From assembly GCA_951813545.1 (NCBI GenBank), contig OX638352.1:4867966-4931965 (forward strand): a DNA stretch of 64,000 bases. Reading direction: 5' to 3'. The position numbers and the translations under genes were made by a program. Under the pieces are notes generated by a model. It was not told the DNA's origin. It searched no databases and was given only the letters and a program-made list of their open reading frames with translations. This stretch comes from an uncultured Poribacteria bacterium. GTDB taxonomy: Bacteria; Poribacteria; WGA-4E; WGA-3G. Positions 3,370-59,992 of this stretch are shown here, piece by piece. Each line of letters opens with the position of its first letter. Position 1 is the stretch's first letter.

Positions 3370-6300
3370 CTATTCATCAATTGTGAAACGTAGCACACCG
3401 CTGCTGGAAGTCCCGACATAAAGCACGTTGCCATCAACATCAAACGACAAGACGGTATCTGGGATTTCAGGTGTAACTCGTTTCCACGTGTCAGAATTTT
3501 CTTTCAACTGATACGCGTATTGTCCGGATGTCCCATATACCTTCGTGCCATCTACCACAATTTTTTCAATAACAAGTGGGCTGCCTTCACTGTCAACTGC
3601 CTCATGCCATTGGGTTCCATCACTTGAATAAGCGACCCCTTTATCGGTTGCCACATAAACAGTTGCTCCCGCGAAGGCAATTGCATTGAACTTCTCCACA
3701 GGAAACGGAAGATCTGCGGTGACATCGTTCCAAGTTTCGCCCTCATCAAATGATTGAGAGAGATGTCCATCTCGTTTTCCAACGTAAACGGTTTTATTTG
3801 CAACTGCGAGTTTGAAACCCATAGAATTATGAACATCACTAAAAAGAGAAGTACCCGCCGAATAGTCAAAAGGAGTGGACATTAAAGTCGAAATAAAGTT
3901 TTCGCCTTTATCTACTAAACCGGTGTTATACCAGGCATCCGTACCGGATTTCCATCTGAAGAGTCTCTGCTTGTGTTCAACATAATATGTTCCGCCGCTG
4001 ACAGAAAAATTTCCGAACATTGATGTCATAGCGGTTCCAAGTGACTCTAAGACCATCTGATTCGCTGCTTTACTTGCCTCCTCAATATCCTTAGTATCGA
4101 GAACTTCACCGTTCTCAAGGTCTTGCTTAGCTATATTCTTGAGTGCATCGCGTGCTGCCTTATCGTTTTTTCGGTTTAACCGATCCGTGAGTTCATTATT
4201 CAGAGGATCAACCTTTTCAAGAATCTTAGGGATCCCAGGAATAGGAATAAATTTGTCACCCTCTGTAGATAAACGTAGAATCTGAGGTTTTAGGACTGCC
4301 ATACCCTTCATGTAGAGCGCATCGTCAAATTTCCGAAAAACCGATATACCTGCCATAGGCGGCGCATCAACGGTAAATGGTGTCCAAGACTCACCACCGT
4401 CAGTTGAGGTGACAAGCCCGTCCATTTCAGAGGCGTAGAGTTTACCGTTAATGGAGAATAGATCCATAACGGTAGTCCCTGCGAGTCCTGTATTAAGTTG
4501 ATGCCAGGATTCGCCTGCGTCGGTCGTGCGATAGACTCCAGTTTGGCTGCCTCTGTAGAAGGTATCTGCGTCCAACATCACAATTGGTGGCGCTATATTG
4601 TTCATTCCAGCAGACCTATCCTTTAAATCTAAGGAGGTCCATGTCTCGCCAGCATTAACTGAATAGAAAAGTTCGCGTGGATGCGCTAACATAACTTTAG
4701 CACCAGACGTGATTATTTTGAAATTTGAATAGGTAAAATCAACAGGCGTTGAATTGGCACCCTGCGGGGGAAATAGAATTGAAAGCATACCCTTCGGCTT
4801 TCTCTCATTTTCCGTCTTTTTTTTCGGATTTATAGTATACCACGTATCACCTAAATCGGTTGAGCGATAAGCTGACCACCAGTTATCGCCTGTCATTATC
4901 GCTTTGCGTTGGGTGCCGATCTCATTTGTAAATTCCCAACCCGCGGCGACATAGAGACGGTGTTCAGAGGCTGCCAAGGCGTGGACGGTCAGTTTTTGCG
5001 CGCGTTTATCTGCAGTACCCACTGACAACCGTTCCCACGCCTCAGCATTGCGACGATAGAGACCGGTATCGGTACCGACAAACACAGTGTTTTCAACGGA
5101 GACGAGTCCCCGAATCTTCTCGGCTTCTAAGTCATCTTTCAATGATACCCACGCTGTCTGACCGTCTTCAGAAAAATATATATCTTCAATAAATGCAAGG
5201 AAAAAACCCGCGTCGGTGACTGCGAAACCCCTGGGAGCACCTTTTGAATGGTCGCCGAGCGAATTCCATGTCTCTCCAGCGTCTGTGGAAGCTAATACTT
5301 CTGTATCAGTAGCAAGATAGAGCATATCACCGTGCTCCGTCATCTGTATCCCACCCGCTATCCAATCTTGGCTAGCGAGTGCGCTGGCACTTCTTGCATT
5401 AACGAGTCTCCATGTGTGCGTATCGTCGGCGAGTTTATAGAGGCTGGTGGGTGTCCCTGCGTAAATATCACCGGAAGTTGCGGTGAAGAGACTGTTAACG
5501 AGACCGCCTTCCGGTCCCTTTGTTTGTATCCACTGTGGTTTCGGTGTTGAGATTTCGGATTCGTCAATTAGTGCTGCGGCGAAGAGCCGAGCGTCGGGTC
5601 TCTGACCTGCTCCCGGGCTCTTACCCGGAGTAGCCGAACTTCCCGCCTGATTTCGTACTGCAGGTTTCGCGGGTGAATCTAAGACAAAATCTGCCTCAAT
5701 GATCTCAACCGTCCGTTCCGATGTCGCATTCAAATCGTAAGGTTTCTGGAAGCGGGAGAGGTATTGTGTGCCAACACCCATCAGTAGGAAAATCAAGACA
5801 GCTGAGGCTGCTGATAATGCCCACGGCAACATAGGTTTATTCGTAGCAGGTGCTGTGGGAACGATACGCGAGACTTCTTGCATGATGGTCTCTGTTAAGT
5901 TAGCAGGCAGTTGGAAACTGCCGAGGTTTTGTCGGATCATGTCTTCCTCCTTCTTCAAACGGTTACGCGCGCGATTGAGGCGACTCTTCACAGTATTCGG
6001 GGAGACACCGAGGAACTCACTGATGGTTTTGATTGTCATCTCGCCGAGGTAATGGAGCGTCATCACTGTGCGTTCGCTCTCAGGCAGTTTTGGAGCAGTT
6101 TCTTGACGACTTCACGACGTGCCTCATCCGCTTCCGCCGCCTGCTTTCCTGCTATGTATCGAGAATATGACACTTGATTCACCTCGCTTGCCTCGGTAAC
6201 TTCCAAGGATTGCTCCGGCGGGGGATTCTTTCGGAGCCAGTCGAGACACAAGTTTGACGCGATGACATAAAGCCAGCCACCAAACGACTCATAACTTTTC

Positions 6301-9013: not shown

Positions 9014-9071
9014 GGTGATTTCTCCTCTGTTTTTTTGTTTAGATTTTACAATTACTTAGACATTTTAAAGA

Positions 9072-9220
9072 GGCGAGGATACAATCCTCGCCAGCAGTGA
9101 TGGAGGTTTTTACTTCTAAGGTTTCTGCTTAAAGAGGCGAGGATACAATCCTCGCCAGCAGTGATGGAGGTTTTTACTTCTAAGGTTTCTGCTTAAAGAG
9201 GCGAGGATACAATCCTCGCC
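9072..9220. repeat. Tandem repeat, 64-bp unit in about 2.9 copies, each carrying a family-1 REP hairpin (GGCGAGGATACAATCCTCGCC)
   Basis: The unit aaagaggcgaggatacaatcctcgccagcagtgatggaggtttttacttctaaggtttctgctt is repeated at 9067, 9131 and 9195. Confidence 0.85.
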
Positions 9221-9383
9221 AGCAGTGATGGAGGTTTTTACTTCTAAGGTTTTCCGCCCCTACGGGGAAACCTGGATTTTTTGTCCACGCGCTGCTATAA
9301 ACATGCTGAAGAAACACCCAACCAAATAAACCTTACAGGACTGAAGAAAGGGCTTAGGGTATACACGGTTTTTACCTAAGATC

Positions 9384-35050: not shown

Positions 35051-35066
35051 AATCCCTCTCACGGTA

Positions 35067-38000
35067 GTTTCAATTCTCTACTGGTTCGATTAAAAACTAA
35101 ATAGTGGTCGGCTATCGGCAGTCGGCAAAGAAGTTTCTATTCCATACTGGTTCGATTAAAAGCAGATGCACTATGACTATTTGGAGAAGTATCGTAGTTT
35201 CTATTCTATACTGGTTCGATTAAAAGTGTAAAAACCACCTGCCGTAAGAACTGCCAATTCAACGTTTCTATTCCATACTGGTTCGATTAAAAGATCAGAA
35301 GTTAATTTCAACCAAGACGCACCGGGATAAGTTTCTATTCCATACTGGTTCGATTAAAAGGGTACCTCTTCCTTTTTGTTACTAGAGAAGATGTGGTTTC
35401 TATTCCATACTGGTTCGATTAAAAAGTCTTCATCACTCATGCCATCATAGAAATTTAATGTGCGTTTCTATTCCATACTGGTTCGATTAAAAGGTCGATC
35501 TTTTCTATGAACGACTGAATCTCCGAGCACGTTTCTATTCCATACTGGTTCGATTAAAAGGCGGTCCAAAATAATTTCCCCCACCTTACAACATTTAGAT
35601 GTTTCTATTCCATACTGGTTCGATTAAAAGTCAACCCATGCCCGATCGTATCCGTCTTGCCTCATGTTTCTATTCCATACTGGTTCGATTAAAAGAGCAA
35701 CAGACTTAACACGTCCACCGTGCATCTCGAGACCGTTTCTATTCCATACTGGTTCGATTAAAAGCTACAGGCAGTTAAGGACATGGCGGACGTAGCACGT
35801 TTCTATTCCATACTGGTTCGATTAAAAGGCGGATGTAGCCCTCTGGTGATTGCCACACACAGGAGTGTTTCTATTCCATACTGGTTCGATTAAAAGGACG
35901 TGGGAAATGTGATAAGCCTCTAAGCAAGAAGCCGGTTTCTATTCCATACTGGTTCGATTAAAAGTTCGGTTGGGAGGAGTTTATGAAAGAGAGGAAAAGA
36001 GAAGTTTCTATTCCATACTGGTTCGATTAAAAGAGAGGCACTCAAAGCGAATCCGCCTACGGAAGTCCAGTTTCTATTCCATACTGGTTCGATTAAAAGC
36101 GAAAACAAAATGGGGGCAGCTTTTATTTAATAGTTTCTATTCCATACTGGTTCGATTAAAAGTGTTCATGAACAAATGAACGTCTCTGTCTATGAACGTT
36201 TCTATTCCATACTGGTTCGATTAAAAGTGATCTTCACTGGCAGAACGGAGGTGAAAAATGACAACCTTGTTTCTATTCCATACTGGTTCGATTAAAAGAC
36301 TCGTTCCGTTTCGGTATGGCACAACGAAATTCTGGTTTCTATTCCATACTGGTTCGATTAAAAGCGCTGAGTTCAGGGTTAGGGAGGCTTTGTTTCACGT
36401 TTCTATTCCATACTGGTTCGATTAAAAGTAGAATCCAACTCCGCTTTCCAGTATCTCATCAATAATGTTTCTATTCCATACTGGTTCGATTAAAAGTATC
36501 GCTTTTGCGATCGTCTCGGAAACGGCAAAGGCAAGTTTCTATTCCATACTGGTTCGATTAAAAGGAAAACCTGCCTTTAGCGAAAGGAGTTGATGAAGAT
36601 GAGTTTCTATTCCATACTGGTTCGATTAAAAGCAACTCACCTTGCTTATCTGCTCTATCGCTAAATATGTTTCTATTCCATACTGGTTCGATTAAAAGTT
36701 AATCCTGCATTTCCGTGCCGCTGGACTCTAAAAGTTTCTATTCCATACTGGTTCGATTAAAAGGGCGGTATCACACACAGACGGATCAGGGCGATATACG
36801 TTTCTATTCCATACTGGTTCGATTAAAAGGGTCATCAGTCTCTTATCAGCACTGCCCCATCGGATACGTTTCTATTCCATACTGGTTCGATTAAAAGGAC
36901 GTAGACCTGCGTATACTGCCGATCAAACCAGAAGTTTCTATTCCATACTGGTTCGATTAAAAGTTATGACTGGTACGTTAGGCCGACCGACGACGCAGCG
37001 TTTCTATTCCATACTGGTTCGATTAAAAGGCGTCGCCGCTTTCGGCTCTTTCGATACTTTCTGACAAATGTTTCTATTCCATACTGGTTCGATTAAAAGT
37101 CGCAGGCACGGCAACCGATCCGCAGATACGTTACATGTTTCTATTCCATACTGGTTCGATTAAAAGGGACGTGTTGCCTGCGTGGAACCCGGATGAGAAT
37201 GTTTCTATTCCATACTGGTTCGATTAAAAGATTAGTAACCGCTTTCGTGTATCCAACACGATAAAGTTTCTATTCCATACTGGTTCGATTAAAAGGCTTG
37301 CCAAAGTTCGTCACGCTCATGCTTGTCTTGAATGTTTCTATTCCATACTGGTTCGATTAAAAGCGGTGCGTACAGCTGAGCACCCGTCAATTCAAACTTT
37401 TGGTTTCTATTCCATACTGGTTCGATTAAAAGCTTCCTATTCCGCCGCAACCCTCCGGTAGTTTCCTATAAGTTTCTATTCCATACTGGTTCGATTAAAA
37501 GCACTCGCTATTTCAACGATTGAACCAACGCTTGACGCAGTTTCTATTCCATACTGGTTCGATTAAAAGCGTTCACAGCACGCCACACGTCCGCCAGTTG
37601 AAAGCAGTTTCTATTCCATACTGGTTCGATTAAAAGGATGCTAAGCGTGAGTGTTCTCCTCAGCAAGAGCGTGTTTCTATTCCATACTGGTTCGATTAAA
37701 AGGGTCCCCGATCGGGGAAATGATATTGACTTGATTTCGTTTCTATTCCATACTGGTTCGATTAAAAGTAAGCGATCTGAGTGTTATAATCATTTAACTG
37801 ACACGTTTCTATTCCATACTGGTTCGATTAAAAGACGATGATAAACTGCTTGATGCATGTTTGGCACTCAAGTTTCTATTCCATACTGGTTCGATTAAAA
37901 GTGCATATCGTGCAATTGACTTCTCCCACACCTAAGTTTCTATTCCATACTGGTTCGATTAAAAGTGTGATAGGTTCGTTCACAAATGCGTATTGCGGGT

Positions 38001-41000
38001 GTTTGTTTCTATTCCATACTGGTTCGATTAAAAGAATGGCGATCTGCGTTACAGGGCTTTTTTTGTCATTCCAGTTTCTATTCCATACTGGTTCGATTAA
38101 AAGTGTAGGGAGTAATCACGAGGTTTATTTTCTATCTAAGTTTCTATTCCATACTGGTTCGATTAAAAGTATTGCAAAGATGTTCCATTTGTGAACATCT
38201 ATATGAAGTTTCTATTCCATACTGGTTCGATTAAAAGCGACTCAGAAAACAGGGTCGTAGGAGCTGGGGGGCGTTTCTATTCCATACTGGTTCGATTAAA
38301 AGATCTCGTTTCGCAGGGCTATGACGAAGACACAATCAAGTTTCTATTCCATACTGGTTCGATTAAAAGGCACGTACTTAATGCGTCCTCTGAAGCCCTT
38401 GTACTTTTTGTTTCTATTCCATACTGGTTCGATTAAAAGTCGATGCTCGTCCAATTTTGAAGCTTACCATCTCCGCAGTGTTTCTATTCCATACTGGTTC
38501 GATTAAAAGACAACACTTACTTCCAGGATGAGGACTACTACATAACGTTTCTATTCCATACTGGTTCGATTAAAAGTCAGATTGGTTCCCCTGATCATAA
38601 TGCTTATACGACCTATCTTGTTTCTATTCCATACTGGTTCGATTAAAAGTCATCACCCACAAGTTCCATCGTCTGAATCAAAGGGGTTTCTATTCCATAC
38701 TGGTTCGATTAAAAGGCCGCTTGAATCGCTGCTAAACAAGTGCCAGGAGTGTTTCTATTCCATACTGGTTCGATTAAAAGGAGGCTGTACTGGGTGCATC
38801 GCTTCGCCCATTGATCCAAACGAGTTTCTATTCCATACTGGTTCGATTAAAAGACGCGTCGTCGACAGGCTTTACATACCAATCGTAGGTTTCTATTCCA
38901 TACTGGTTCGATTAAAAGGACTGAAAGCGTAACTCTCCGACCATATTCGTAGCAGGTTTCTATTCCATACTGGTTCGATTAAAAGCAGTTCGGCTGGGAG
39001 AAATTTATGGAAGGAGTCAAAAGGCAAGTTTCTATTCCATACTGGTTCGATTAAAAGCACCAACAGTCCCACCTTCAGTCCCCCAGAGAAAGTGTTTCTA
39101 TTCCATACTGGTTCGATTAAAAGATGCAGGAGAAGGAGACAGTAAGGGATCACGTGAAGGGTTTCTATTCCATACTGGTTCGATTAAAAGTTTGGGCAAA
39201 ACGTTCAAGCATAGCATCCAGAAAAACGTTTCTATTCCATACTGGTTCGATTAAAAGTGTACAGTCTCGGTAAGGCACGTATCACACTTCCTGCGTTTCT
39301 ATTCCATACTGGTTCGATTAAAAGAACATGCCCGTCCGCTGCAGGAAGATGGTACGGAAGTTTCTATTCCATACTGGTTCGATTAAAAGTATTATTGCTT
39401 GTGTCGGTGCGTCCGACTTTTCTGTGTTTCTATTCCATACTGGTTCGATTAAAAGTCGTAACAACGTGTAGTAACTTCTGCAAAATTGCGGTTTCTATTC
39501 CATACTGGTTCGATTAAAAGGCTATTGGAGTTGCTTATTATGAAACTTGAAAAAGAGTTTCTATTCCATACTGGTTCGATTAAAAGTTAGAAAACACAAT
39601 ATCATCCTCCTCCACCAGTATGTTTCTATTCCATACTGGTTCGATTAAAAGAAACGCTCTGTCCAGTAAGTCTTTATCCACGCCCACAAGTTTCTATTCC
39701 ATACTGGTTCGATTAAAAGTGGTGTTTCTACCCCCGCTATCAACCGCCTAACGAATGTTTCTATTCCATACTGGTTCGATTAAAAGAGAAACTGCTTCTG
39801 TAACCGCTTACTAATAATGATGCGTTTCTATTCCATACTGGTTCGATTAAAAGAGGAGATGCCCAATGTGCGTTGGTGGGAAAATATGTGTTTCTATTCC
39901 ATACTGGTTCGATTAAAAGGCAAGGTGCTTGGTGCTGGTGGTGCAGGGTAAGACTGTTTCTATTCCATACTGGTTCGATTAAAAGTTATCAAGTCGAAGA
40001 AGCAATCGCTTAAACCTAAGTTTCTATTCCATACTGGTTCGATTAAAAGTCTATGAAATGATCGTCGTCGCTCAACTCGTACCGTTGTTTCTATTCCATA
40101 CTGGTTCGATTAAAAGGCGCCTCTTGCAGTTGTTGGGCTGTATCCGAGAGTTGCGTTTCTATTCCATACTGGTTCGATTAAAAGTGAACCAAGCCGTACG
40201 AACGACACAGACATTTGAATGTTTCTATTCCATACTGGTTCGATTAAAAGTTTGCCGCGTGGCATTTTCTACACACTTCGCGAGAGTTTCTATTCCATAC
40301 TGGTTCGATTAAAAGGTCTTTGAGAAACGTCAACGCGTTAGCTATCTTTGGTTTCTATTCCATACTGGTTCGATTAAAAGTCCTGCATCGAAGATTCATC
40401 GAGCGCAAGTTCCATGTTTCTATTCCATACTGGTTCGATTAAAAGGCGAATAGAGATGTGGACTGTTCGGGATTCCTTAGTGTGTTTCTATTCCATACTG
40501 GTTCGATTAAAAGTTAAGGTTGAGGCAGGTGATGTTGATGTTCAGTCCTAGTTTCTATTCCATACTGGTTCGATTAAAAGTCAAGCACTCCATTCAAAAA
40601 AACCGGCTCCTACAACAAGCGTTTCTATTCCATACTGGTTCGATTAAAAGATCCACGCCCACAAAGGAGCATAGACAATTTCCTTTTTTCTATTCCATAC
40701 TGGTTCGATTAAAAGAATTGCCAAGAGAGTATCTCAGCACCTTCAATACGTAAGTTTCTATTCCATACTGGTTCGATTAAAAGTTCCATCTCTTCAAATG
40801 AATAACCTCCGTGGAAGTTTCTATTCCATACTGGTTCGATTAAAAGGCGCGTCCTTCACGGGCGCGTCAAATCCTGCAAGGTGCTGTTTCTATTCCATAC
40901 TGGTTCGATTAAAAGTTGCCAAACCAGACAATCAGCATGTACTGACCCAAGAATTGTTTCTATTCCATACTGGTTCGATTAAAAGTCCTGTTCCCGATCG

Positions 41001-44000
41001 TGGCAATGATATTGATCTGATCTGTTTCTATTCCATACTGGTTCGATTAAAAGTTGATAGTCATGGGTTACCTGTTGACGTTGCTAAGTTTCTATTCCAT
41101 ACTGGTTCGATTAAAAGGTACCCATTTTCCGTCTTACCGTTAGCAACGTCAACGTTTCTATTCCATACTGGTTCGATTAAAAGCGCACAACTGATGCAGT
41201 TCCGCCCCCCCCAGGAATGTTTCTATTCCATACTGGTTCGATTAAAAGAAAGATCTGAATTAAACTGCTATCTTCACATTCTGTCGTGTTTCTATTCCAT
41301 ACTGGTTCGATTAAAAGCATGTCAGGCGGTGCCATGATGCACATTAACTTCAAGATCAGGGTTTCTATTCCATACTGGTTCGATTAAAAGTCATCGAACC
41401 CATCCACGACATCGACGAACGCCGCGTTTCTATTCCATACTGGTTCGATTAAAAGGGGTATCGTCCGGCATAGCGCTCACAGGCGTAGAGGGTTTCTATT
41501 CCATACTGGTTCGATTAAAAGATCAATAAAATTTTCTTCAAAGGTGCTGTGCAGTGTTTCTATTCCATACTGGTTCGATTAAAAGTCCCTTCTATTAAGG
41601 TATCCACAAGTTCATTCTGGTTTCTATTCCATACTGGTTCGATTAAAAGCCTGACAGCCACAATTATCGCAGACGTTGACAGCGTGGTTTCTATTCCATA
41701 CTGGTTCGATTAAAAGCCGATGGCAAGGGAATAAACCCCCTTGCCACAACAAAGTTTCTATTCCATACTGGTTCGATTAAAAGTAACTTCGGATCGTCTT
41801 CATCATCAAAGTCTTGTTGAGTTTCTATTCCATACTGGTTCGATTAAAAGGCGAAACGAGATCAGCATACGCGTTCGACGCGCCCCAGTTTCTATTCCAT
41901 ACTGGTTCGATTAAAAGGAGGTTATCCAAAGTTACTACGACCGTAACGAAAAAGGTTTCTATTCCATACTGGTTCGATTAAAAGGCAGGCATCAAGCGAA
42001 ACTTACGGAGGTTATCACAGTTTCTATTCCATACTGGTTCGATTAAAAGTTATTCGGTGCGTCATAAAGCACGCGACCATTTGCAAGTTTCTATTCCATA
42101 CTGGTTCGATTAAAAGGTCTTACCAAACGGATGCCTCTGGGACAGATGAAGGTTTCTATTCCATACTGGTTCGATTAAAAGTTTATCGGGGGGAATTACC
42201 CAGAGGGCTATGGCGGCGTTTCTATTCCATACTGGTTCGATTAAAAGAACAGGGCGGAGTCCTCTTGGGGATTGTTGGTCACGTTTCTATTCCATACTGG
42301 TTCGATTAAAAGGCGGGAACATCAGAAACGGTATGAGGAAATCCGTATAGGTTTCTATTCCATACTGGTTCGATTAAAAGACGCGCCGAGAGAGACGCAC
42401 TGTACACACTTCGCAGTGGTTTCTATTCCATACTGGTTCGATTAAAAGATTAACACCTAAATCACTTTGAAACGTTTGACGTGGTTTCTATTCCATACTG
42501 GTTCGATTAAAAGGAGACATTCATACCGATGTCGATACCGATCTCTTGGGTTTCTATTCCATACTGGTTCGATTAAAAGCGGATACGGGCGGTGCTCTTA
42601 GAACTGTATATCTCGTGTTTCTATTCCATACTGGTTCGATTAAAAGGGGTTTCCTGACGCATAGTAATCCATTTTTTGATCTACGTTTCTATTCCATACT
42701 GGTTCGATTAAAAGAAAATTCAGAGTGTTACACCAAAGGGACACCTTTTCGAGTTTCTATTCCATACTGGTTCGATTAAAAGGTCAGGAAAGAAGATGAC
42801 GCAGGAGGGTTAAACGTTTCTATTCCATACTGGTTCGATTAAAAGTTCCCCGCACTGCCAAGATAAAGAAGAGCAATTTCATAGTTTCTATTCCATACTG
42901 GTTCGATTAAAAGCTGGTCAAAACTAGGCTCCCAACAACAACCAGTTAAGTTTCTATTCCATACTGGTTCGATTAAAAGTCACAAACTGAGCAGTGCCGA
43001 CAACCCACCTTGACATGTTTCTATTCCATACTGGTTCGATTAAAAGTCAAGGTCGTGGAAGGCAGGATAATCGTTTTCAAGATGTTTCTATTCCATACTG
43101 GTTCGATTAAAAGGGTACTTTCGAGAACCCTAATGCGACTTTTGATAGTCAAGTTTCTATTCCATACTGGTTCGATTAAAAGCGCACGCACGCCTGCAAC
43201 AGTCTCTCCGACTGTAATGTTTCTATTCCATACTGGTTCGATTAAAAGATAAACTTCTCCCAGCCAAACTGGGATGTCAACATACGATCATGTTTCTATT
43301 CCATACTGGTTCGATTAAAAGCTCCGCTTTCGGCCTTTGCGATAGCGTCTCCGAGATTGTTTCTATTCCATACTGGTTCGATTAAAAGATATGCTCCTCG
43401 CACGGTTCAGGCTGGGTGGCTTAGGTTTCTATTCCATACTGGTTCGATTAAAAGGACATAGCTACAAATATAGGAGGTATCAGCAGTGGGTGTTTCTATT
43501 CCATACTGGTTCGATTAAAAGTGAAATGATACAGGCATGGGCTTCTGGAGAGATGACAAGTTTCTATTCCATACTGGTTCGATTAAAAGACGTTTAGACG
43601 ACCGTTTACGATGATGCTTGCGAACGTTTCTATTCCATACTGGTTCGATTAAAAGTCCAGATATGGCAGTTGACACCGAGATTCACAGAATTGTTTCTAT
43701 TCCATACTGGTTCGATTAAAAGGTATGAGGAAATCCGTATAGCGGAAGCGACGTTGGAAGGTTTCTATTCCATACTGGTTCGATTAAAAGTATACAGCCA
43801 GCGGTACGGTAGAAGTTCAATATAGTGTTTCTATTCCATACTGGTTCGATTAAAAGCTTACACGTATCGACCGGCAGTGATACTCGATCTGATGTTTCTA
43901 TTCCATACTGGTTCGATTAAAAGAATATCTATGTCCTGCTCACTGACAGAAACATCCTGGTTTCTATTCCATACTGGTTCGATTAAAAGCCAAGAAATTA

Positions 44001-44322
44001 TACCAGCCACCCGTATCGGTCCAAGTTTCTATTCCATACTGGTTCGATTAAAAGCGAACTCAACTTACCGACAGCCGAATCGACATCATCAAGTTTCTAT
44101 TCCATACTGGTTCGATTAAAAGAGCGCACTTGGCGCGATGTGGTATCCCGATACATAAGAGTTTCTATTCCATACTGGTTCGATTAAAAGCACTCGAATC
44201 AATGCCCAAGCATCGCTTGATTTGACGTTTCTATTCCATACTGGTTCGATTAAAAGGTAAGTTGTAACAGCCTTGTTAGAACGTTTCGGAATGTTTCTAT
44301 TCCATACTGGTTCGATTAAAAG
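35067..44322 (-). CRISPR. CRISPR array with 139 copies of a 30-bp repeat (GTTTCTATTCCATACTGGTTCGATTAAAAG on the plus strand) and 138 spacers of about 34-42 nt
   Basis: Repeat starts were counted manually. The terminal repeat at 35067-35096 is degenerate (gtttcaattctctactggttcgattaaaaa). The leader-proximal perfect repeat at 44293-44322 abuts the cas2-side leader. Transcription is inferred on the minus strand, where the repeat reads CTTTTAATCGAACCAGTATGGAATAGAAAC and ends in GAAAC. Confidence 0.95.
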
Positions 44323-44579
44323 GCTCTACGAAAACCATGTATATATCATACAGAACTCCTGTGGGGCGTGTCAAGTCAATTTTACTTACTGCATGTTCTA
44401 AGACCAATTTGCTGTCGATCTTCGGTAGTGTAAATTCTCTGGGAGGTTGACGGCTCTTTACAAAGCGCGGGTTCGGACACTCATTTGACGAGAAATGACG
44501 GATGTGGTTACCTTTCAAAACCCTGATATAAGCGCGGTCGACAGCGGATTTTAGGTTTAAATTTCAGTACAAGTTACAC
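44323..44579 (-). promoter_or_regulatory. CRISPR leader
   Basis: A 257-bp non-coding segment between the cas2 stop and the first perfect repeat. The degenerate repeat at the opposite end of the array supports this as the leader side. Confidence 0.55.
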
Positions 44580-48917: not shown

Positions 48918-49544
48918 TTACCATCTCGAAGGGTTGTCAGGATGCAATTGATCTAATTCCCATTTCATCGGATTATCCTGAATATATTGGCGAAGTCGTT
49001 GTAAATCTGGTTCGTCTCGGATGATATGATCGTGATAATTTCTTTGCCAAACACGCGTTCTGGGTGTATTGTAGTGTTGGTTAATATGCTTGGTGGATTG
49101 ATATTTGAAATAGGCTATGATTTTGCCTAACGAGGGCGAGGGGACCTCGCCCCTACGATTATTTTCTGGTTCGTCTGACGCAGGCGAGGGGACCTCGCCC
49201 CTACGAGTGTTGGGATCTTCTGGTGGGCGTGGGGACCTCGCCCCTACGAGTGGTTGTGGATCCCTCGTCTCTGCGATGCCCCATGAAATAATTCCGTGAA
49301 AATGATTAGGCATGATGACAGAATCGCCCAATTCAACGGAGGGAAAATGTTGTGGAATATGTTTCCAACATTCAACGACAATTTGGCCTATTGCATTCAA
49401 TCGCATTTTCCCATCTGTTATTGTCCCCAATAAACATTTTCGGTGTTGTACACAGATGGTCACGAAATATGCACCGGGTTGGCTGTAATCATAATTACGC
49501 AAACGCATGGCGCGGCGTTGAGGAAGATTGGATTTGGAGTTCAT
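48918..49544 (-). CDS. REP-associated tyrosine transposase (RAYT, IS200/Y1 HUH superfamily) carrying in-frame REP insertions
   Basis: The N-terminus RLRNYDYSQPGAYFVTICVQ, the HuH motif NHFHGII, and the C-terminal WQRNYHDHIIRDEPDLQRLRQYIQDNPMKWE (catalytic Tyr) are RAYT hallmarks. Three copies of the hairpin GGCGAGGGGACCTCGCCCCTACG, at 49135-49153, 49183-49201 and 49228-49245, lie in-frame between the HuH and Tyr motifs and encode RRGEVPSP-type segments. Confidence 0.75.
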   Translation of the reverse strand: MNSKSNLPQRRAMRLRNYDYSQPGAYFVTICVQHRKCLLGTITDGKMRLNAIGQIVVECWKHIPQHFPSVELGDSVIMPNHFHGIISWGIAETRDPQPLVGARSPRPPEDPNTRRGEVPSPASDEPENNRRGEVPSPSLGKIIAYFKYQSTKHINQHYNTPRTRVWQRNYHDHIIRDEPDLQRLRQYIQDNPMKWELDQLHPDNPSRW

Positions 49545-49562
49545 AAGGAAACCCCCTCAGCG

Positions 49563-49624
49563 GGCGAGGAAACCTCGCCCCTACGATATTTTACGGTTGA
49601 ATTGGACGAGGGGACCTCGCCCCT
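49563..49624. repeat. Two family-1 REP hairpins immediately upstream of the RAYT gene
   Basis: ggcgaggaaacctcgcccctacg (49563-49585) and gacgaggggacctcgcccctacg (49607-49629). Confidence 0.8.
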
Positions 49625-49632
49625 ACGATGTG

Positions 49633-50367
49633 TTATGGTGAGATGCTGGGGAGTTGCATCTGTTTTCCGTCCACATCAGGAACTTGATAGTTTTTGTCAA
49701 CGGGTTTCCTCTTTTGCTCATTTGGAACGGTAAACTCCCCAGGAATACGTTCGTGTAGATACACACCCCAATCCATTTCTGGGTCGTGCAAAACATCACC
49801 ACGGTATTCAATTTTTTCTGTTATCAGACAATATGCACGCGTGCCGCAAGGACGACGCGGGATTTCTGCTGTGAAATGGGTTGGAAGTGCCTGAACCTGT
49901 CCATATAATTGTGCGTCAGGAAACGGAAGCAGCGTATCTTGATAGGTTGTTTCTGATACGTTTTCGAGTTGAATTTCCTTTATAGATTCTACGGTTGCTA
50001 GATCGGAGGACCGCCCTAAGAGTAACGGATAACACGGGCGTTCAAACGCTTCTTTTAACCACATATCAGGCGTATAGAGATAGAGTTCGGGTTGGACAAG
50101 AAATTCGCGTTTGTTGACGTTTGACTTGGCATCCAATTTTCCTGCAAACTCATAGAGGGTTTCTAAATCAACGGCTTTGCCGTTACTCTTGAAAACAAAT
50201 CCGATTGTGGCATCATGTGGCGTAACCCAATCCCCCTTTGCAGCAGAAAGAAGACCATAGATTGCTGATAGTGGAGGCAAAGGGAGTGTCGGTTGGAATC
50301 CACTAATGAATAGCGGATTCCGAAACGACGCGACCCAACCGGTGATGTGCACCCGAATCACTTTCAT
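49633..50367 (-). CDS. cas5: Cas5 (type I)
   Basis: The N-terminus MKVIRVHITGWVASFRNP matches Cas5. It overlaps the cas7 stop by 4 nt. Confidence 0.7.
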   Translation of the reverse strand: MKVIRVHITGWVASFRNPLFISGFQPTLPLPPLSAIYGLLSAAKGDWVTPHDATIGFVFKSNGKAVDLETLYEFAGKLDAKSNVNKREFLVQPELYLYTPDMWLKEAFERPCYPLLLGRSSDLATVESIKEIQLENVSETTYQDTLLPFPDAQLYGQVQALPTHFTAEIPRRPCGTRAYCLITEKIEYRGDVLHDPEMDWGVYLHERIPGEFTVPNEQKRKPVDKNYQVPDVDGKQMQLPSISP

Positions 50368-51412: not shown

Positions 51413-52816
51413 TTATGATGCATCATCTGCATCTGATGTATTCTCTTCTTCGTATTCTACATAACCGTGTTCTTGTAACCAACTGTGGAGTTGTTCGTAA
51501 ATCCGAAATAGCAGTAGGTCGCGTGTCTCTCGCCACGGCGTAAGGTTGAGGTTATCGCTCGCGGGGAAAAGATATTCCATGTAATCATCAATTGAAAATA
51601 AGGGTTCCGGTGCACCTTGTTGAATCCTTTCACGGATGACATAGCGTAAAATATTTCTACATTCACCGTAACTTTTTGCCCGCTCTAATTGCTTAAGCCG
51701 CTTATCATCTTTAGATTCCTGGATGCACTCAGAAATTAGATTTCCGACCTGCTTAATTTTTTCAACTCGTGTTTGCTCCATAGTTCTAACCTCCTGTAGA
51801 TAGAGGGAAAATAGTTCCCAGTTGCTGCGTGTTTTCCGCGCGAGTTTATCAATGAAAAATCCACGTATTGATTTATCCTCTAACAGATTATTATAGACTA
51901 AATTTGTCGATTTTTGATAAATCTCGGTTGGGTTTGTCTTATCCGAATCAATATTTTGAAACCCTTTTTTTGTTTGTCTCCTATAACCACTTCTGACAAT
52001 TAGATACCAGTTTTTGGCATACTGTGCCCGATGTGCATAGCGCAGAAAATTAAAGACCCTTGCTGGCAAGTGATACAGGTCTAATTCAGCTTTCCTATTA
52101 TCATTGGAAAAACTGTAAACCTGCATCGTAATATTCCCATCTGATCGTGCTTTTTCATACTCGATCATTTTCCTTACCATATAGAAAAGAGCATTTTGAG
52201 CTTTTGATTCCTTTGGATCAAAAAATCCCGTAAATTCGTTTCGGGACCCGCGACTAATAACATCTTCAATACAAGTTCTCGTCCAGTAACTTATGGCTTT
52301 CCAAGAATTTGAGTGTAAAGCTAAAAACTTTCCTCCACTACGAACAAATCCTAACGGTGCCAATTGGATAGCAAGCGCACATGCAGCACAATAACCAACG
52401 CCCTCTGCGAATAAAGGGAAGAAATTTCGTAGACTTCCAGAACCCGTGAGTGGAACTTCTGTCTTCTTAAGATGAAAATCCGCACTTCGCCTACCACATC
52501 CCATGCAATCGCCAGTATCACCCAGATCGGTAACTTTACAAAGTTGATGGAACCATTCTGATTTAAGTTCTTCATTAAGGCTCTGTATGCCTTTTTGGAT
52601 TTTGCTATGCTGGGTTAAGGTGCTGTTTGGAAAAATAAATCGGATTTGAGTGCGGTATTCGGACTCACAATAAAGCGGTACAACCTGCTGAACGACTTCT
52701 TGTAAATCTTCGACTGTAATTTCATTTGGCTGCGGGTGCCCCCCTAGCCATTCACAAATCGCACATACTCCGGCATCAACAAATGGATTGCCCATTAGTT
52801 TCTCATATATTGGCAT
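51413..52816 (-). CDS. cas8b: Putative Cas8b-like large subunit (divergent)
   Basis: 467 aa, in the large-subunit position between cas6 and cas7. It has a Cys-rich segment (CMGCGRR...CAACALA). Similarity is weak; assignment is by position. Confidence 0.45.
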   Translation of the reverse strand: MPIYEKLMGNPFVDAGVCAICEWLGGHPQPNEITVEDLQEVVQQVVPLYCESEYRTQIRFIFPNSTLTQHSKIQKGIQSLNEELKSEWFHQLCKVTDLGDTGDCMGCGRRSADFHLKKTEVPLTGSGSLRNFFPLFAEGVGYCAACALAIQLAPLGFVRSGGKFLALHSNSWKAISYWTRTCIEDVISRGSRNEFTGFFDPKESKAQNALFYMVRKMIEYEKARSDGNITMQVYSFSNDNRKAELDLYHLPARVFNFLRYAHRAQYAKNWYLIVRSGYRRQTKKGFQNIDSDKTNPTEIYQKSTNLVYNNLLEDKSIRGFFIDKLARKTRSNWELFSLYLQEVRTMEQTRVEKIKQVGNLISECIQESKDDKRLKQLERAKSYGECRNILRYVIRERIQQGAPEPLFSIDDYMEYLFPASDNLNLTPWRETRDLLLFRIYEQLHSWLQEHGYVEYEEENTSDADDAS

Positions 52817-52986
52817 AGCATTTATCTCCTTTCAAAACTACTATAAATATATTATATCCTGTTTACTAAATTAAGTAAAGTTAAAATTTATTTAGGTTTC
52901 TGCCGCGCCGAAACGAGGCGGATTTTGAGTTTTCACCGCTCTACCTAACCTACGGTTATACCTCATTTTTTATTCTTCAACTCATG

Positions 52987-53385
52987 TTAATTGAGCATTA
53001 CTTCCTTCCAAGCAGTTTTACCGAAGGGGACTGCGAATTCGGTTATTATCACATTCTCATCAAAGCCATGTTTTAATTCATCTTCAAGTTTCAATCCGAA
53101 TTGTGCGTCAGGCATTCGCCATTCAATCGATCGCGGGTGTAGATCATTATAGATCTCTACAACATGGATTGGATGTTTCTTTCTTAAATATGCCGTGTAT
53201 ACAAAAGCTTGCGTTTGATGATCTATGAACAAGTACGGTATTAGATATGCCACTCCAAGTTTGGTGAGGTAGTTGGGAACCTCGTTAGTTCTATTTGCGA
53301 CAGTACAAACAAAACCGAAAAGATTGCATTGATTCCATGCAGCAATATATTCTTTGGAAGCCTTCATAATTTCCTCCAAGTCCAT
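52987..53385 (-). CDS. Hypothetical 132-aa protein, possibly NTF2/SnoaL-like fold, inserted in the cas operon
   Basis: The N-terminus MKASKEYIAAWNQCNLFGF resembles SnoaL/NTF2-like starts. It is embedded in an AT-rich segment between cas6 and cas8. Confidence 0.35.
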   Translation of the reverse strand: MDLEEIMKASKEYIAAWNQCNLFGFVCTVANRTNEVPNYLTKLGVAYLIPYLFIDHQTQAFVYTAYLRKKHPIHVVEIYNDLHPRSIEWRMPDAQFGLKLEDELKHGFDENVIITEFAVPFGKTAWKEVMLN

Positions 53386-53590
53386 TCAGTAAAAATTCGG
53401 TCTGCATCCCATAGCAGGTTACTATATAACACTCTAATCTTAATTATACGCGAAACAACTTTATTTGTCAAATATAATTCCATTTTTTTTTAATTTAGTA
53501 TAACTTAACATAACAAAGGATTTTTTAATTATACGCGAAACAACTTTATTTGTCAAATTTCTTGATTAATTCAAAGGGTACTCCAATTCC

Positions 53591-53674
53591 AAATTGGTTC
53601 GATTAAAGATAAACAAAAAAGCGCGTTAGTATCACATAACAAAACAAGTTTCTATTCCATACTGGTTCGATTAG
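53591..53674 (-). CRISPR. Orphan mini-array: one truncated and one near-complete copy of the CRISPR repeat with a 39-nt spacer
   Basis: aaattggttcgattaaag (53591-53608) and gtttctattccatactggttcgattag (53648-53674) match the array repeat. They lie in AT-rich, leader-like sequence downstream of cas6. Confidence 0.6.
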
Positions 53675-53787
53675 ATTATTGATTTCACGTTATATTAGAC
53701 GTTTCACATTTAAAATGGTTTACAGAAACTTTTAAAATATGTGTGTGTGGTCCTCAGCCATACATAAACCCACCCTCATAGTAGGTC

Positions 53788-54540
53788 TTAGACTTCTGCC
53801 ATCCCGAAACCGGCACTGTTTTTGTCGCCGAAACCACACTCGTAGCCGGTTTGGATTAATGCGGGACTTCCAGAGACACGGAATGGACACATCATTCCCT
53901 TTATCTTGATTCCTTTGTAGTCCACCAGACGAGTGACGCGTCCCTGTCGTCTGTCAATGTAGTCTTTATCAAAGGCGAAGGTCAGGGTATCGTCGTGGGG
54001 GACGCGAGCGTGGATTGCTTCGTGTTTGCGGATTAGGTTTTGGCGGATGAGTTCGGAGAGTACTGGATCGTCGGGTAGGCAGTAGTGCATTGCTTGCTTG
54101 CCGTCTCGCTCGCGCTTAGTGGACATTACAATCGGGGAGAGACATCGGAAATGCATTTCTGATTGGAAACGGGGGATACGCGGTATTGTGACATCCGTAA
54201 TTGGCAACCGACGCTGCCCAATGGATAACCGTCCCTCGGTTAAGAGTGTATTGGCGAAATGGGAGAGAAAGCGTTCTACTGGCGAGGAGACGTACCATGT
54301 TAAAGTTGAACGGAAATGGATTTTGTCACCGGTGATGCGTCTGCGTTCTGCCATTAATTGGGAGAAGGTGAAGAGTTTGAAACGTTTCTCGGCAGCGCGG
54401 TAGCCTTCCTCATGTAGAAAAGAGGCATACTCAGGGTCGGATTCGGCGAGGAAACGATAGATGACACCGGCGAGCAGGTGGTTGTAGTTAATGGGTAGGG
54501 TGAGTCCGTTCCCGACATCGGCAACGATTTTGATGCGCAT
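53788..54540 (-). CDS. cas6: Cas6 endoribonuclease
   Basis: 250 aa with a C-terminal glycine-rich loop GFGDKNSAGFGMAEV typical of Cas6. Confidence 0.75.
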   Translation of the reverse strand: MRIKIVADVGNGLTLPINYNHLLAGVIYRFLAESDPEYASFLHEEGYRAAEKRFKLFTFSQLMAERRRITGDKIHFRSTLTWYVSSPVERFLSHFANTLLTEGRLSIGQRRLPITDVTIPRIPRFQSEMHFRCLSPIVMSTKRERDGKQAMHYCLPDDPVLSELIRQNLIRKHEAIHARVPHDDTLTFAFDKDYIDRRQGRVTRLVDYKGIKIKGMMCPFRVSGSPALIQTGYECGFGDKNSAGFGMAEV

Positions 54541-55243: not shown

Positions 55244-55432
55244 TTTTATTATTCCTTTTAATAGTTGTCAGTTAAAGAGGGGTTTGACCTAATCAGAGAC
55301 CTCAATCATTCGTTTGCACAGCCTAACAGGCTATGCTACAGTTCCTTTTAAAGTTGTCAGTTGTCAGTTATCAGTTGTCAGTTAAAGAGGGGTTTGATCT
55401 AATCAGAGATCTCAATCATTCAGGAGGACAAT

Positions 55433-58046: not shown

Positions 58047-58877
58047 TTATTTCTGTTTAAGGTCCGCCCAAGTTGTTGCCAATTTTCCAGTGGGTTCAAC
58101 AGCAGTCAGGGGCAGAATTTCATCGAAGAAACTGTCCTTATCAGTTGCGGCATCTGGATAGATTGTAACAGCGTCGTTCGTTGCATCGTCAAAGTGAAGG
58201 TTGAAATATGCGGAACCGCCGGATTCACCACACCGGTAAAGAAGGACGTTCGCGCCTTTTTGTAAATCGACTTCGACGTTGTGAAGAATCGTTCGTGCGG
58301 CACCTGTCCACCTTGTATTGTTATACCATTTTTCGCCATTAAGCCAAATTTGGGCGTGATCGTCGTGTGCGGGCGACATTACAGCTTTCATATCACTCGG
58401 CGAATCGATAACGATAATAGCATAGGTATCAAGATTATCAACGGGTCCGCCTCTGTTCATATTATCTCCATCAGCAGGATCAATTTCAAAGACTGTCCAT
58501 GCACGAGTGCCGCCGTGGTCATCGCCCCATTCCATATCAATGTCCTGTGTCATAAGCAAACCTTCCATCGTTGAAAGTGAGGACTGCGTCAGTTTACCGC
58601 CGCTCCCTTCGTCAATGAAGTCCATCGGACCGGAAACTTGGAAGGTTCCATTGTTTTCGTAGTTGCCGTCGGGTCCGTACCACTTCGTAATCCACGTTTC
58701 TACGTCACTGTGATCTTCTCTGAGGCTGTCATCGTTGGGGTCTGGATCTTCTAAGAGTTGGTCTTCAGCCAAGGGACCCCCTTGGATTAGGTCAGCCGCA
58801 AACACATGGTGTGAGCCACTGATAACGAGCGTGAACATAATCCCAATTGCGAGTGCTAACGTATAAAATCTTTTCAT
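58047..58877 (-). CDS. Secreted hypothetical protein, paralog 1
   Basis: Signal peptide MKRFYTLALAIGIMFTLVISGSHHVFA. About 70% identical to the 59170..59992 gene. Confidence 0.5.
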   Translation of the reverse strand: MKRFYTLALAIGIMFTLVISGSHHVFAADLIQGGPLAEDQLLEDPDPNDDSLREDHSDVETWITKWYGPDGNYENNGTFQVSGPMDFIDEGSGGKLTQSSLSTMEGLLMTQDIDMEWGDDHGGTRAWTVFEIDPADGDNMNRGGPVDNLDTYAIIVIDSPSDMKAVMSPAHDDHAQIWLNGEKWYNNTRWTGAARTILHNVEVDLQKGANVLLYRCGESGGSAYFNLHFDDATNDAVTIYPDAATDKDSFFDEILPLTAVEPTGKLATTWADLKQK

Positions 58878-59169: not shown

Positions 59170-59992
59170 CTAACGGTTCCGTTTAATATCTGCCCAGAGC
59201 GTTGTCAATTTTCCAGTCGGATCAACGGATAAAACCCCAGCAACTTCACTGAAGAAGCTTTTCTGGTCTTTCGACTTGTCTGGATAAATTTTGCAGGCTT
59301 TGTGGGTGGCATCATCAAAGTGGAGGTTTATATACGCGGAACCGCCGGATTCACCAACTCGGTAGAGGACAACATTGGCACCTTTTTGTAAATCGACTTC
59401 GACGTTGTGAAGAATCGTTCGTGCGGCACCCGTCCACCTGGAGTTGTTGTACCATTTTTCGCCGTTAATCCAAATTTGGGCGTGGTCATCATGTGCTGGA
59501 GACATGATGGCTTTCCTCGCTGCGGGTGCATTAATAACGATAATACCGTAGGTATCAATGTTATCCACGGGTCCGCCTCGGTTCATATTGTCTCCGTCTG
59601 CCGGATCAAGCTCAAAGACTGTCCACTCTCGTGTACCGCCGTTAGCCTTCTTCCATTCCATATCAACGGTTTGTGTCAGCTGCAAACCGGCGACTGTTGA
59701 GAGCTTGGTTTCCGTGAGTTTACTACTTGTGCCCTCATCAATAAGGTCTCTCCGAGAAGAAACCTGAAAGCTGCCGTTGTTTTCGTAGTTGCCATCGGGC
59801 CCATACCACTTGGTAATCCAAGTGTCAACATCACTGTGATCTTCTCTAAGGTTGTCCCCGTTGGGGTTTGGATCCTTTAGGAGATCACCTTCCGCCAAAG
59901 GTCCATCATCGATATCGTTTGCCTGCGCGAATGCGAGGTGCGAGATGCTTACAACGAGTGCGAAAATAATCGCTGTCGCAAGCGTAAATTGA
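59170..59992 (-). pseudogene. Secreted hypothetical protein, paralog 2, split after codon 6 by an IS701-like insertion
   Basis: The body reads ...FTLATAIIFALVVSISHLAFAQA... without an in-frame ATG. The missing 5' end, ATGAAAAGATTTTATCAA (MKRFYQ), lies on the far side of the IS at 61086-61103 (minus strand). A 5-bp direct repeat TTGAT flanks the IS. Confidence 0.6.

Follow-up and report, generated by a model that had tools for sequence, protein, structure and literature searches.

In a 64,000-nucleotide (nt) stretch of DNA from an uncultured Poribacteria bacterium (hereafter the window; contig OX638352.1 of assembly GCA_951813545.1), we found a miniature repeat-spacer unit, or mini-array, in the gap between cas6 and cas8b of a type I-B CRISPR-Cas locus. 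Judged from its sequence, this unit (53580-53677, minus strand) is quite probably a gene for a regulatory RNA that resembles a CRISPR RNA (crRNA), of the CreA/CreR/'SRU' class, which would gate a small non-Cas gene (hereafter the cargo) located downstream. The anatomy of the unit, the pattern of complementarity between its guide and a nearby promoter, the protospacer adjacent motif (PAM), and the conservation and covariation over 14 loci are direct observations. This type of circuit is already known; the gene under its control is new.

A mini-array and its target in the cas6-cas8b gap

The 970-bp gap has a GC content of 0.27-0.39 over 52800-53700, compared with 0.43-0.53 on either side, as expected from the first-pass annotation of this DNA, which had pointed out an AT-rich segment between cas6 and cas8. 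The mini-array in this gap consists of two repeat-like sequences (PsiR) and a spacer-like guide (PsiS) between them (Table 1). The cognate array repeat reads CTTTTAATCGAACCAGTATGGAATAGAAAC in transcript orientation. The upstream copy (PsiR-up) departs from this repeat within its first 4 nt only and agrees with it throughout the final 8 nt (8/8), such that PsiR-up supplies an intact 8-nt 5' handle, ATAGAAAC. The downstream copy (PsiR-down) keeps most of its first 22 nt and is degenerate in the last 8 nt (4/8), which is the part that Cas6 would remove. This asymmetry, with the handle kept and the downstream 3' end lost, is expected if only the mature guide matters, which comprises the 5' handle, the spacer, and the following repeat's 5' part. 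The PsiR pairs of other loci have the same pattern of retention and decay. The mini-array stands 9 kb from the main array, and a match to the array repeat with three or fewer mismatches is expected by chance 0.00 times. Both repeat-like sequences align to the array repeat when scored (27/30 and 22/30), as the earlier description of a near-complete and a degenerate copy had implied; the spacer is 38 nt rather than 39 nt, and the span given at the time (53591-53674) was slightly too narrow.

The left end of the main array contains single-mismatch repeats and a degenerate terminal repeat, and the array is therefore read on the minus strand, as are the cas genes. With this degenerate repeat at the far left and the leader beside cas2, the initial reading of the repeat and spacer on the plus strand was rejected; it also fails because the intact 5' handle arises only on the minus strand. 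A search of the region against Rfam found no family, and folding of the repeats predicted them to be essentially unstructured.

Downstream of the mini-array is a direct duplication that had been noticed before as a 33-bp repeat; it is 34 bp long and 100% identical between its two copies (53440-53473 and 53525-53558). Each copy contains, on the minus strand, a perfect sigma-70 promoter (TTGACA-17-TATAAT; 12/12 consensus positions). We refer to the upstream promoter as P1 and the downstream one as P2. The duplication is thus this pair of promoters and not part of a second leader as once proposed, and the flanks of the mini-array have no similarity to the array leader. A CCT PAM is found 8 nt past the -10 box of P1, and the target of PsiS starts 11 nt past the same box and covers the predicted transcription start region of P1. 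P2 begins 7 bp beyond the PAM-distal end of this protospacer, and no target follows it.

The target was identified by a seed scan of PsiS against the whole window, in which the best match is located 90 bp from PsiS on the same strand, with CCT directly before it. Over the paired part, PsiS reads TTGTTTTGTTATGTGATACTAA and the target reads TTGTTATGTTAAGTTATACTAA. The two match at positions 1-5, 7-11, 13-14, and 16-22, and differ at positions 6, 12, and 15. Type I Cascade complexes do not read every sixth position of the guide, including 6 and 12, as these are flipped out. When such positions are set aside, 18 of the 19 remaining positions in nt 1-22 match. Pairing is lost beyond position 22, with only two matches among the 16 PAM-distal positions. 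For comparison, the 137 genuine array spacers reached no more than 15 by the same count against this region, nor did 2000 shuffled versions of PsiS exceed 15, and the maximum for the genuine spacers was 13 when a CCW PAM was required. No PsiS target was found at P2, at the promoter-like site of cas8b (Pcas8), or elsewhere in the window.

Table 1. Features of the mini-array, its target, the cargo gene, and the associated CRISPR-Cas locus. Positions refer to the window unless a locus label is given.
Feature	Position	Strand	Basis or remark
PsiR-up, upstream repeat-like sequence, AATCTAATCGAACCAGTATGGAATAGAAAC	53648..53677	-	27/30 identical to array repeat
PsiS, 38-nt spacer-like guide, TTGTTTTGTTATGTGATACTAACGCGCTTTTTTGTTTA	53610..53647	-	
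PsiR-down, downstream repeat-like sequence, TCTTTAATCGAACCAATTTGGAATTGGAGT	53580..53609	-	22/30 identical to array repeat
Conserved block TAAACC-N17-TCTAAT, ~17 nt upstream of PsiR-up	53694..53722	-	Candidate promoter of the crRNA-like gene (inferred)
P1, perfect sigma-70 promoter in the upstream duplication copy	53528..53556	-	12/12 consensus
P2, identical perfect promoter in the downstream duplication copy	53443..53471	-	12/12 consensus
PAM CCT, 8 nt past the P1 -10 box	53517..53519	-	
PsiS target (protospacer); paired part 53495-53516, TTGTTATGTTAAGTTATACTAA	53479..53516	-	Best seed match in the 64-kb window
Cargo open reading frame, 132 amino acids	52987..53385	-	Open reading frame
Probable, decayed cas6 3'-end remnant including stop codon, GTTTCGGCGCGGCAGAAACCTAA	52892..52914	-	Aligns to the last 23 nt of cas6; not significant alone
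cas8b promoter-like site TTTACT-17-TATAAT, without PsiS target	52851..52879	-	Consensus scan
cas8b (Cas8b1/Cst1), first Cascade gene downstream of the gap	51413..52816	-	NCBIfam TIGR01908, E=4e-38
cas6	53788..54540	-	NCBIfam TIGR01877 (E=1e-41); both Pfam domains of Cas6 (N- and C-terminal)
Cognate CRISPR array, at least 138 repeats of 30 nt, spacers 33-43 nt	35066..44322	-	Repeat search
Array leader, beside cas2	44323-44579	-	
Second non-cas gene of related loci	L001 7107-7556, L002 7165-7539, L005 7181-7609, L007 4977-5405, L008 307-714, L009 4515-4889 (-)		

Conservation and covariation among related loci

The comparison included 14 loci: the window, 11 others with a homolog of the cargo open reading frame (ORF), and two more that have the mini-array only or are cut by a contig end. 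Individual loci are cited by label (e.g., L004). A DNA-pattern scan of GTDB genomes matched one named genome, a Candidatus Poribacteria metagenome-assembled genome (L009), in which the mini-array and target lie directly on the cas8 promoter without the ORF, and a DNA-pattern scan of metagenomes found one more locus. In L015, a DNA-pattern match with mini-array and target, the contig ends inside the target. A protein-pattern scan of GTDB genomes found no confirmed relative, and a scan of viral contigs for the mini-array pattern found none.

All 11 other loci with an ORF homolog, and likewise the two further loci, have the order mini-array, strong promoter, YCN PAM, and target. The module in each ORF-containing locus can be described as PsiR, PsiS, PsiR, a consensus or near-consensus promoter, YCN, a partial PsiS match, and the Shine-Dalgarno sequence and start of the ORF. 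Counted per position over 12 loci, guide and target are identical in 11-12/12 at positions 1-5, in 9-12/12 at positions 7-11, and in 11/12 at positions 13-17. The corresponding values are 2/12 at position 6, 1/12 at position 12, and 4/12 at position 18, and they are at background (0-4/12) at positions 23-28. PsiS and target vary in step between loci at positions 1, 5, 11, and 13-17. The seed of L016, GTATTGTGTTG, is quite unlike the others, and its target matches it. The seed (T/A)TGT(T/G)TTGTT is kept in most of the related loci, unlike those of true spacers. The PAMs across loci (CCT, CCA, CCG, TCT, and TCA) together make YCN, which is the experimentally defined PAM of the type I-B system in Clostridioides difficile (PMC8406132). 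The six-nucleotide periodicity combined with the covariation rules out array decay or simple duplication, and selection for Cascade binding can explain both. The unit, described as vestigial at first sight, is conserved in these 14 loci with a spacer that covaries with its target.

The mini-array repeats also follow the local array repeat. In L002, the array and the mini-array both have the core CGCACCAGTTTGG, and the core in the window is CGAACCAGTATGG. Upstream of the mini-array, a block TAAACC-N16/17-CGTCTWA is present in 9 of the 14 loci (the window, L001, L002, L004, L010, L012, L013, L014, and L016), ~11-45 nt from the first repeat-like sequence, with its internal spacing preserved and with the CGTCTWA part in common. 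It could serve the crRNA-like gene as a promoter, or it could represent a third repeat that is highly degenerate, and read-through from cas6 may also transcribe the mini-array. In L012, additional fragments of degenerate repeats come before the mini-array, which has a perfect promoter of its own (TTGACA-18-TATAAT). In L005 (7647-7679), L007 (5491-5523), L008 (801-833), and L009 (reverse strand, ~4409-4441), PsiS is nearly self-complementary (ATGTTTTGTTTACTAAATAAAACAACAT), and the guide in this clade could hide its own seed in a hairpin. The PsiS of the window does not have this property.

The layout with two promoters is also found in L003/L004. The tandem copies are alike at 34/34 positions in the window and differ by one mismatch in L004 (594-622 and 681-709), so that they are closer within a genome than between genomes. 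This pattern indicates concerted evolution or independent duplication. A 16-codon ORF, MLSYTKLKKNGIIFDK (53461-53511, minus strand), begins inside the PsiS target between P1 and P2 of the window and is absent in L004.

The cargo ORF is mostly located between cas6 and cas8b; it lies upstream of cas6 in L014 and between a type III-A module and cas8b in L012, and L013 and L016 carry the module on short contigs. In L012 (4560-4960), the I-B module directly adjoins the type III-A (csm) module. Another non-cas gene, absent from the window, is conserved in six loci, where it lies between the mini-array and cas6; its product of 124-149 amino acids (aa) has, from translation inspected by eye, a signal-like segment at the N terminus, a hydrophobic one at the C terminus, and heptad-like repeats.

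For the history of this region, the stretch downstream of the ORF in L016 includes 175 bp that are clearly derived from the 3' end of cas6 and have decayed (1598-1770; score 89 compared with a null of 18). Weaker, probable remnants of 23-24 nt, which match the terminus of cas6 with its stop codon, are found in the window and in L010 (6416-6440), and the gene order in L014 is mini-array, ORF, cas6, and cas8. These remnants and the L014 order suggest that the module first stood before cas6, which was later duplicated or relocated upstream, rather than that a cassette entered by repeat-mediated recombination as previously envisaged.

The proposed circuit, the cargo protein, and competing explanations

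Based on these features, the mini-array would be transcribed in the direction of the cas operon and cut by Cas6, the product of cas6 being the endoribonuclease expected to process such a transcript. The resulting guide, composed of an 8-nt 5' handle (AUAGAAAC), the 38-nt PsiS, and a repeat-derived 3' end, would load into the type I-B Cascade. The complex would then read the CCT PAM downstream of the P1 -10 box and pair over approximately 22 nt across the transcription start, with the mismatches at positions 6 and 12 falling where Cascade is indifferent. Since the PAM-distal 16 nt would stay unpaired, the complex is predicted to remain as a repressor without licensing cleavage by Cas3. The promoter gated in this way, P1, would drive the gene for a small OB-fold-like protein and, without a strong terminator, would probably add read-through into cas8-cas7-cas5. 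P1 would fire once Cascade runs short, is titrated by a large number of crRNAs, or meets an anti-CRISPR protein that blocks it. The untargeted P2 would add basal expression of the cargo in this window.

The start of the cargo ORF is likely the second ATG (53367), which gives a protein of 126 aa, because a GGAGG Shine-Dalgarno sequence precedes it and a 126-aa database protein (P0001; 99% identical) agrees. The family is rare: only 8 homologs were present in a collection of 5.8 billion proteins, and 22 cluster representatives in one of 1.84 billion. Its members are 126-159 aa long. All homologs with readable surroundings are in a type I-B cas locus behind a PsiS-type target. The ORF was never seen without the mini-array and target, and the mini-array without the ORF was seen in L009. 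Sequence searches of the cargo against Pfam, NCBIfam, PADLOC, and PDB gave no match, those against PHROGs gave insignificant matches only, and no Pfam domain was found in 19 family members. The original impression of a non-Cas cargo in the cas6-cas8 gap was borne out by these searches, and the ORF has no housekeeping homologs elsewhere.

An AlphaFold model built from a 19-sequence alignment reached a predicted local distance difference test (pLDDT) score of 87.9 and a predicted template modeling (pTM) score of 0.81, and its structural matches are to oligonucleotide/oligosaccharide-binding (OB) folds only; a model from a 9-sequence alignment was unusable (pLDDT 35). Foldseek searches of the model against PDB and viral models returned nothing significant, and the weak top matches were again OB folds. 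The cargo can thus be described with moderate confidence as a predicted OB-fold-like beta-barrel. An NTF2/SnoaL-like fold, the initial suggestion, was rejected, as Pfam gives it no support and the confident model yields OB-fold matches only.

By analogy with CreP or the CRISIS genes, the cargo could be a Cascade-repressed toxin or defense effector for emergencies, a reading to which we give slightly less than an even chance. It is suggested by the fact that the gene was never seen apart from the mini-array and target, the consensus promoters and strong Shine-Dalgarno sequence, and the separate untargeted promoter of cas8. That the cargo is a benign, co-regulated accessory seems rather unlikely, and some other role has the remaining, slightly smaller share. 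A more specific proposal, which we put forward tentatively and with somewhat more doubt than confidence, is that the cargo represents a new OB-fold-like family of Cascade-repressed effectors, the type I-B bacterial counterpart of CreP/CRISIS. Loss of Cascade, or its blockage by an anti-CRISPR, would trigger a burst of this protein that arrests the cell or the phage, for which a protein coat on single-stranded DNA or RNA is a plausible means, and the tandem promoter duplication would have made it a basal-plus-inducible defense gene in this lineage.

Several points weigh against the proposed circuit or its cargo reading. P2 is untargeted and the PAM lies ~82 bp upstream of the predicted P2 start, so that a complex bound there would at best partly occlude P2, and the ORF may be expressed constitutively in the window and L004. 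The untargeted P2 therefore weakens a lethal-toxin reading of the ORF, and the duplicated promoter layout fits a basal-plus-inducible defense or accessory gene better than a strict toxin. The cargo also has no match to known defense families in PADLOC. As cas8 has its own untargeted promoter, Cascade autoregulation here would depend on read-through. For the RNA itself, the candidate promoter is the conserved upstream block, whose match to the sigma-70 consensus is not strong. Among the related loci, pairing past position 11 requires a 1-nt shift in L010, and position 1 is mismatched in L009, where the PAM is TCA. Finally, we infer transcription, Cas6 processing, Cascade binding, and repression from sequence features.

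Among the alternatives, the one that survives best is a pure CreR-type autoregulation, in which the guide sets Cascade levels, transcripts from P1/P2 continue into cas8-cas7-cas5-cas3, and the ORF is either carried along without harm or a true Cas accessory that is simply co-regulated. No strong terminator was predicted by scan and folding between the ORF and cas8b in the window (52817-52995), which makes read-through from P1/P2 into cas8 plausible and some CreR-like feedback on Cascade conceivable. The placement of mini-array and target directly on the cas8 promoter in L009, without the ORF, argues in the same direction, as does the tolerance of ORF expression implied by the untargeted P2. 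Also, CreR and CreA are known to regulate Pcas8 in type I-B systems (10.1101/2023.03.10.532045; PMC8501985). Nevertheless, each ORF-bearing locus examined has a separate strong untargeted cas8 promoter (e.g., L004, L014, and L016), and the ORF is followed by a hairpin and then a T-rich tract in L014 and by GC-rich hairpins resembling repetitive extragenic palindromic (REP) sequences in L004. Furthermore, the strict co-occurrence of the ORF with mini-array and target looks like dependence. We consider autoregulation as the sole role unlikely.

A classical CreTA arrangement would have P1 driving a small toxic RNA or mini-peptide between P1 and P2, such as the 16-codon ORF, with the 132-aa ORF as a separate gene driven by P2. 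The position in the cas6-cas8 gap is that of the haloarchaeal creTA, and a short ATG-initiated ORF does exist inside the target region. Yet the equivalent segment of L004 contains no ATG, there is no terminator between P1 and P2, and in the ten ORF loci with a single promoter, the Shine-Dalgarno sequence and start of the protein gene directly follow the target. This makes the arrangement very unlikely.

Hardly credible is the first-pass proposal of a vestigial leader and mini-array, or of an anti-CRISPR or accessory cassette from a mobile element whose repeat-spacer unit has no regulatory role. The AT-rich composition, an ORF of no known family, and the cas6 3'-end remnant downstream of the ORF, which marks a rearranged region, are in keeping with this idea. 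It is countered by flanks that do not resemble the array leader, and decay does not explain the 14-locus conservation, the covariation, the mismatches at positions 6, 12, and 18, or the YCN PAM. The ORF family is conserved behind a Cascade target in chromosomal cas loci and in no other readable context, neither a significant viral structural match nor the mini-array pattern in viral contigs was found, and an anti-CRISPR repressed by the Cascade of its host inside the host's own operon makes little sense. An ordinary one-spacer array for immunity against a mobile element is barely worth entertaining, as the two repeats and normal-length spacer that it would account for come with a seed that is kept even where the ORF proteins of two loci share only 42-70% identity and with a best match that is a partial self-target 90 bp away beside a PAM, of a kind that the true spacers of the 137-spacer array do not have.

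The surrounding locus and known systems

The type I-B locus is complete and lies on the minus strand of the window (NCBIfam TIGR01908, TIGR02585, TIGR01895, TIGR01877, and TIGR01587). Its gene order on this strand is cas6, the gap, cas8b/Cst1, cas7/Cst2, cas5t, an IS200-like Y1 transposase gene, cas3, cas4, cas1, and cas2, in which Cas4, Cas1, and Cas2 were assigned by ORF size, gene order, and annotated homologous loci. A search of the array spacers against a GenBank phage collection, aimed at deriving the PAM from real protospacers, gave no match. The Y1 transposase (208 aa; 48918-49544, minus strand) resembles the REP-associated tyrosine transposases (RAYT) and is located between cas5 and cas3. 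Five copies of the REP-like palindrome GGCGAGGGGACCTCGCCCCTACGA flank this gene (repeats at 49122-49254 and 49550-49633), and the motif CCTCGCCNNTACGA is also found in L001, L003/L004, and L007. A perfect 64-bp tandem repeat at 9065-9252 (2.9 copies, 100% identical) contains a palindrome of this REP-like type, GGCGAGGATACAATCCTCGCC. A 54-nt direct repeat (93% identical; 55258-55311 and 55368-55421) and a tandem heptamer, AGTTGTC (4.6 copies; 55352-55383), are located upstream of the CopD-like gene beside cas6, in the intergenic region. Two adjacent minus-strand ORFs (58047-58877, 276 aa; 59170-59898, 242 aa) have a 300-nt stretch in common with 77% identity, and are thus tandem paralogs.

If the proposed regulation is correct, this locus would be an unusually clean natural case of CRISPR effectors used as transcription repressors. 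The guide-target covariation in 14 diverged loci, with mismatches at positions unread by Cascade, predicts, for a bacterial I-B system that is unstudied, a YCN PAM and the rules of its seed, and the predicted guide RNA would begin with AUAGAAAC-UUGUUUUGUU. Another outcome is a protein family, rare and unannotated, that is seemingly confined to Cascade control, and this protein is the part worth following up. Should it be toxic or defensive, the CreP/CRISIS concept would extend to type I-B with a new fold, and the gene could be used as a sensor of I-B anti-CRISPRs or as a kill-switch part; otherwise, it would be a new Cas-associated accessory protein.

Experiments on CreA and CreR have demonstrated repression by partially paired Cascade (Li et al., 2021, Science; Cheng et al., 2021, NAR, PMC8501985; 10.1101/2023.03.10.532045). 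In Haloarcula hispanica, the type I-B creTA occupies the cas6-cas8 gap, and one Cascade-CreA complex represses two flanking promoters (PMC8501985; 10.1101/2023.03.10.532045). The module in the window resembles this system in subtype, in its site, in the two degenerate repeats around a pseudo-spacer, and in the PAM-proximal partial complementarity to a very strong promoter. In both cases there are two promoters, which are divergent in H. hispanica with the Cascade-guide complex between them, whereas those in the window are tandem. Other differences are that the window has bacterial sigma-70 promoters in place of the B recognition element (BRE) and TATA box of CreTA, that its product is a 126-159-aa protein instead of a small RNA that sequesters tRNA, and that its cas8 has a separate untargeted promoter. 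The regulated gene of CreTA is a small toxic RNA; the conserved gene here is protein-coding, and the 16-codon ORF between P1 and P2 is not conserved. For CreR, the closest likeness is L009, in which the cas8 promoter is, judged from the layout, the immediate target of the homologous mini-array. The cargo gene and the second, untargeted promoter of cas8 stand between the targeted promoter and cas8 in the window.

Mini-arrays that regulate cargo genes, and an enrichment of repeat-like sequences around cas6 in I-B systems, have been described (Shmakov et al., 10.1101/2023.03.03.530964). Defense genes under the supervision of crRNA-like RNAs (crlRNAs), termed CRISIS, also have mismatches noted at positions 6 and 12 (10.1101/2024.12.27.630466). 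The likeness to these systems includes non-cas genes within a type I cas operon, a crlRNA target at the promoter, mismatches that gather in the PAM-distal part as well as at positions 6 and 12, and tolerance of basal expression. The CRISIS loci described are mostly of type I-C; their SRU follows the cargo and their target overlies the promoter core, whereas in the window the cargo comes after the mini-array and the target spans the transcription start; also, the cargo here matches no known or candidate defense family in PADLOC.

A version of the same mechanism with a protein toxin, CrePA, has been demonstrated in a type I-F system of Acinetobacter (10.1101/2024.01.05.574328). Like CrePA, the window combines a crRNA-like RNA with a Cascade-gated promoter before a small protein gene inside the cas operon, and the protein family hardly occurs outside that intergenic site. 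The two differ in subtype (I-B instead of I-F), in the PAM (YCN instead of CC), and in the extra untargeted promoter of the window. CrePA is defined by a KilAC toxin, and neither KilAC nor any other Pfam domain was found in the 19 members of the cargo family, for which the model is OB-fold-like.

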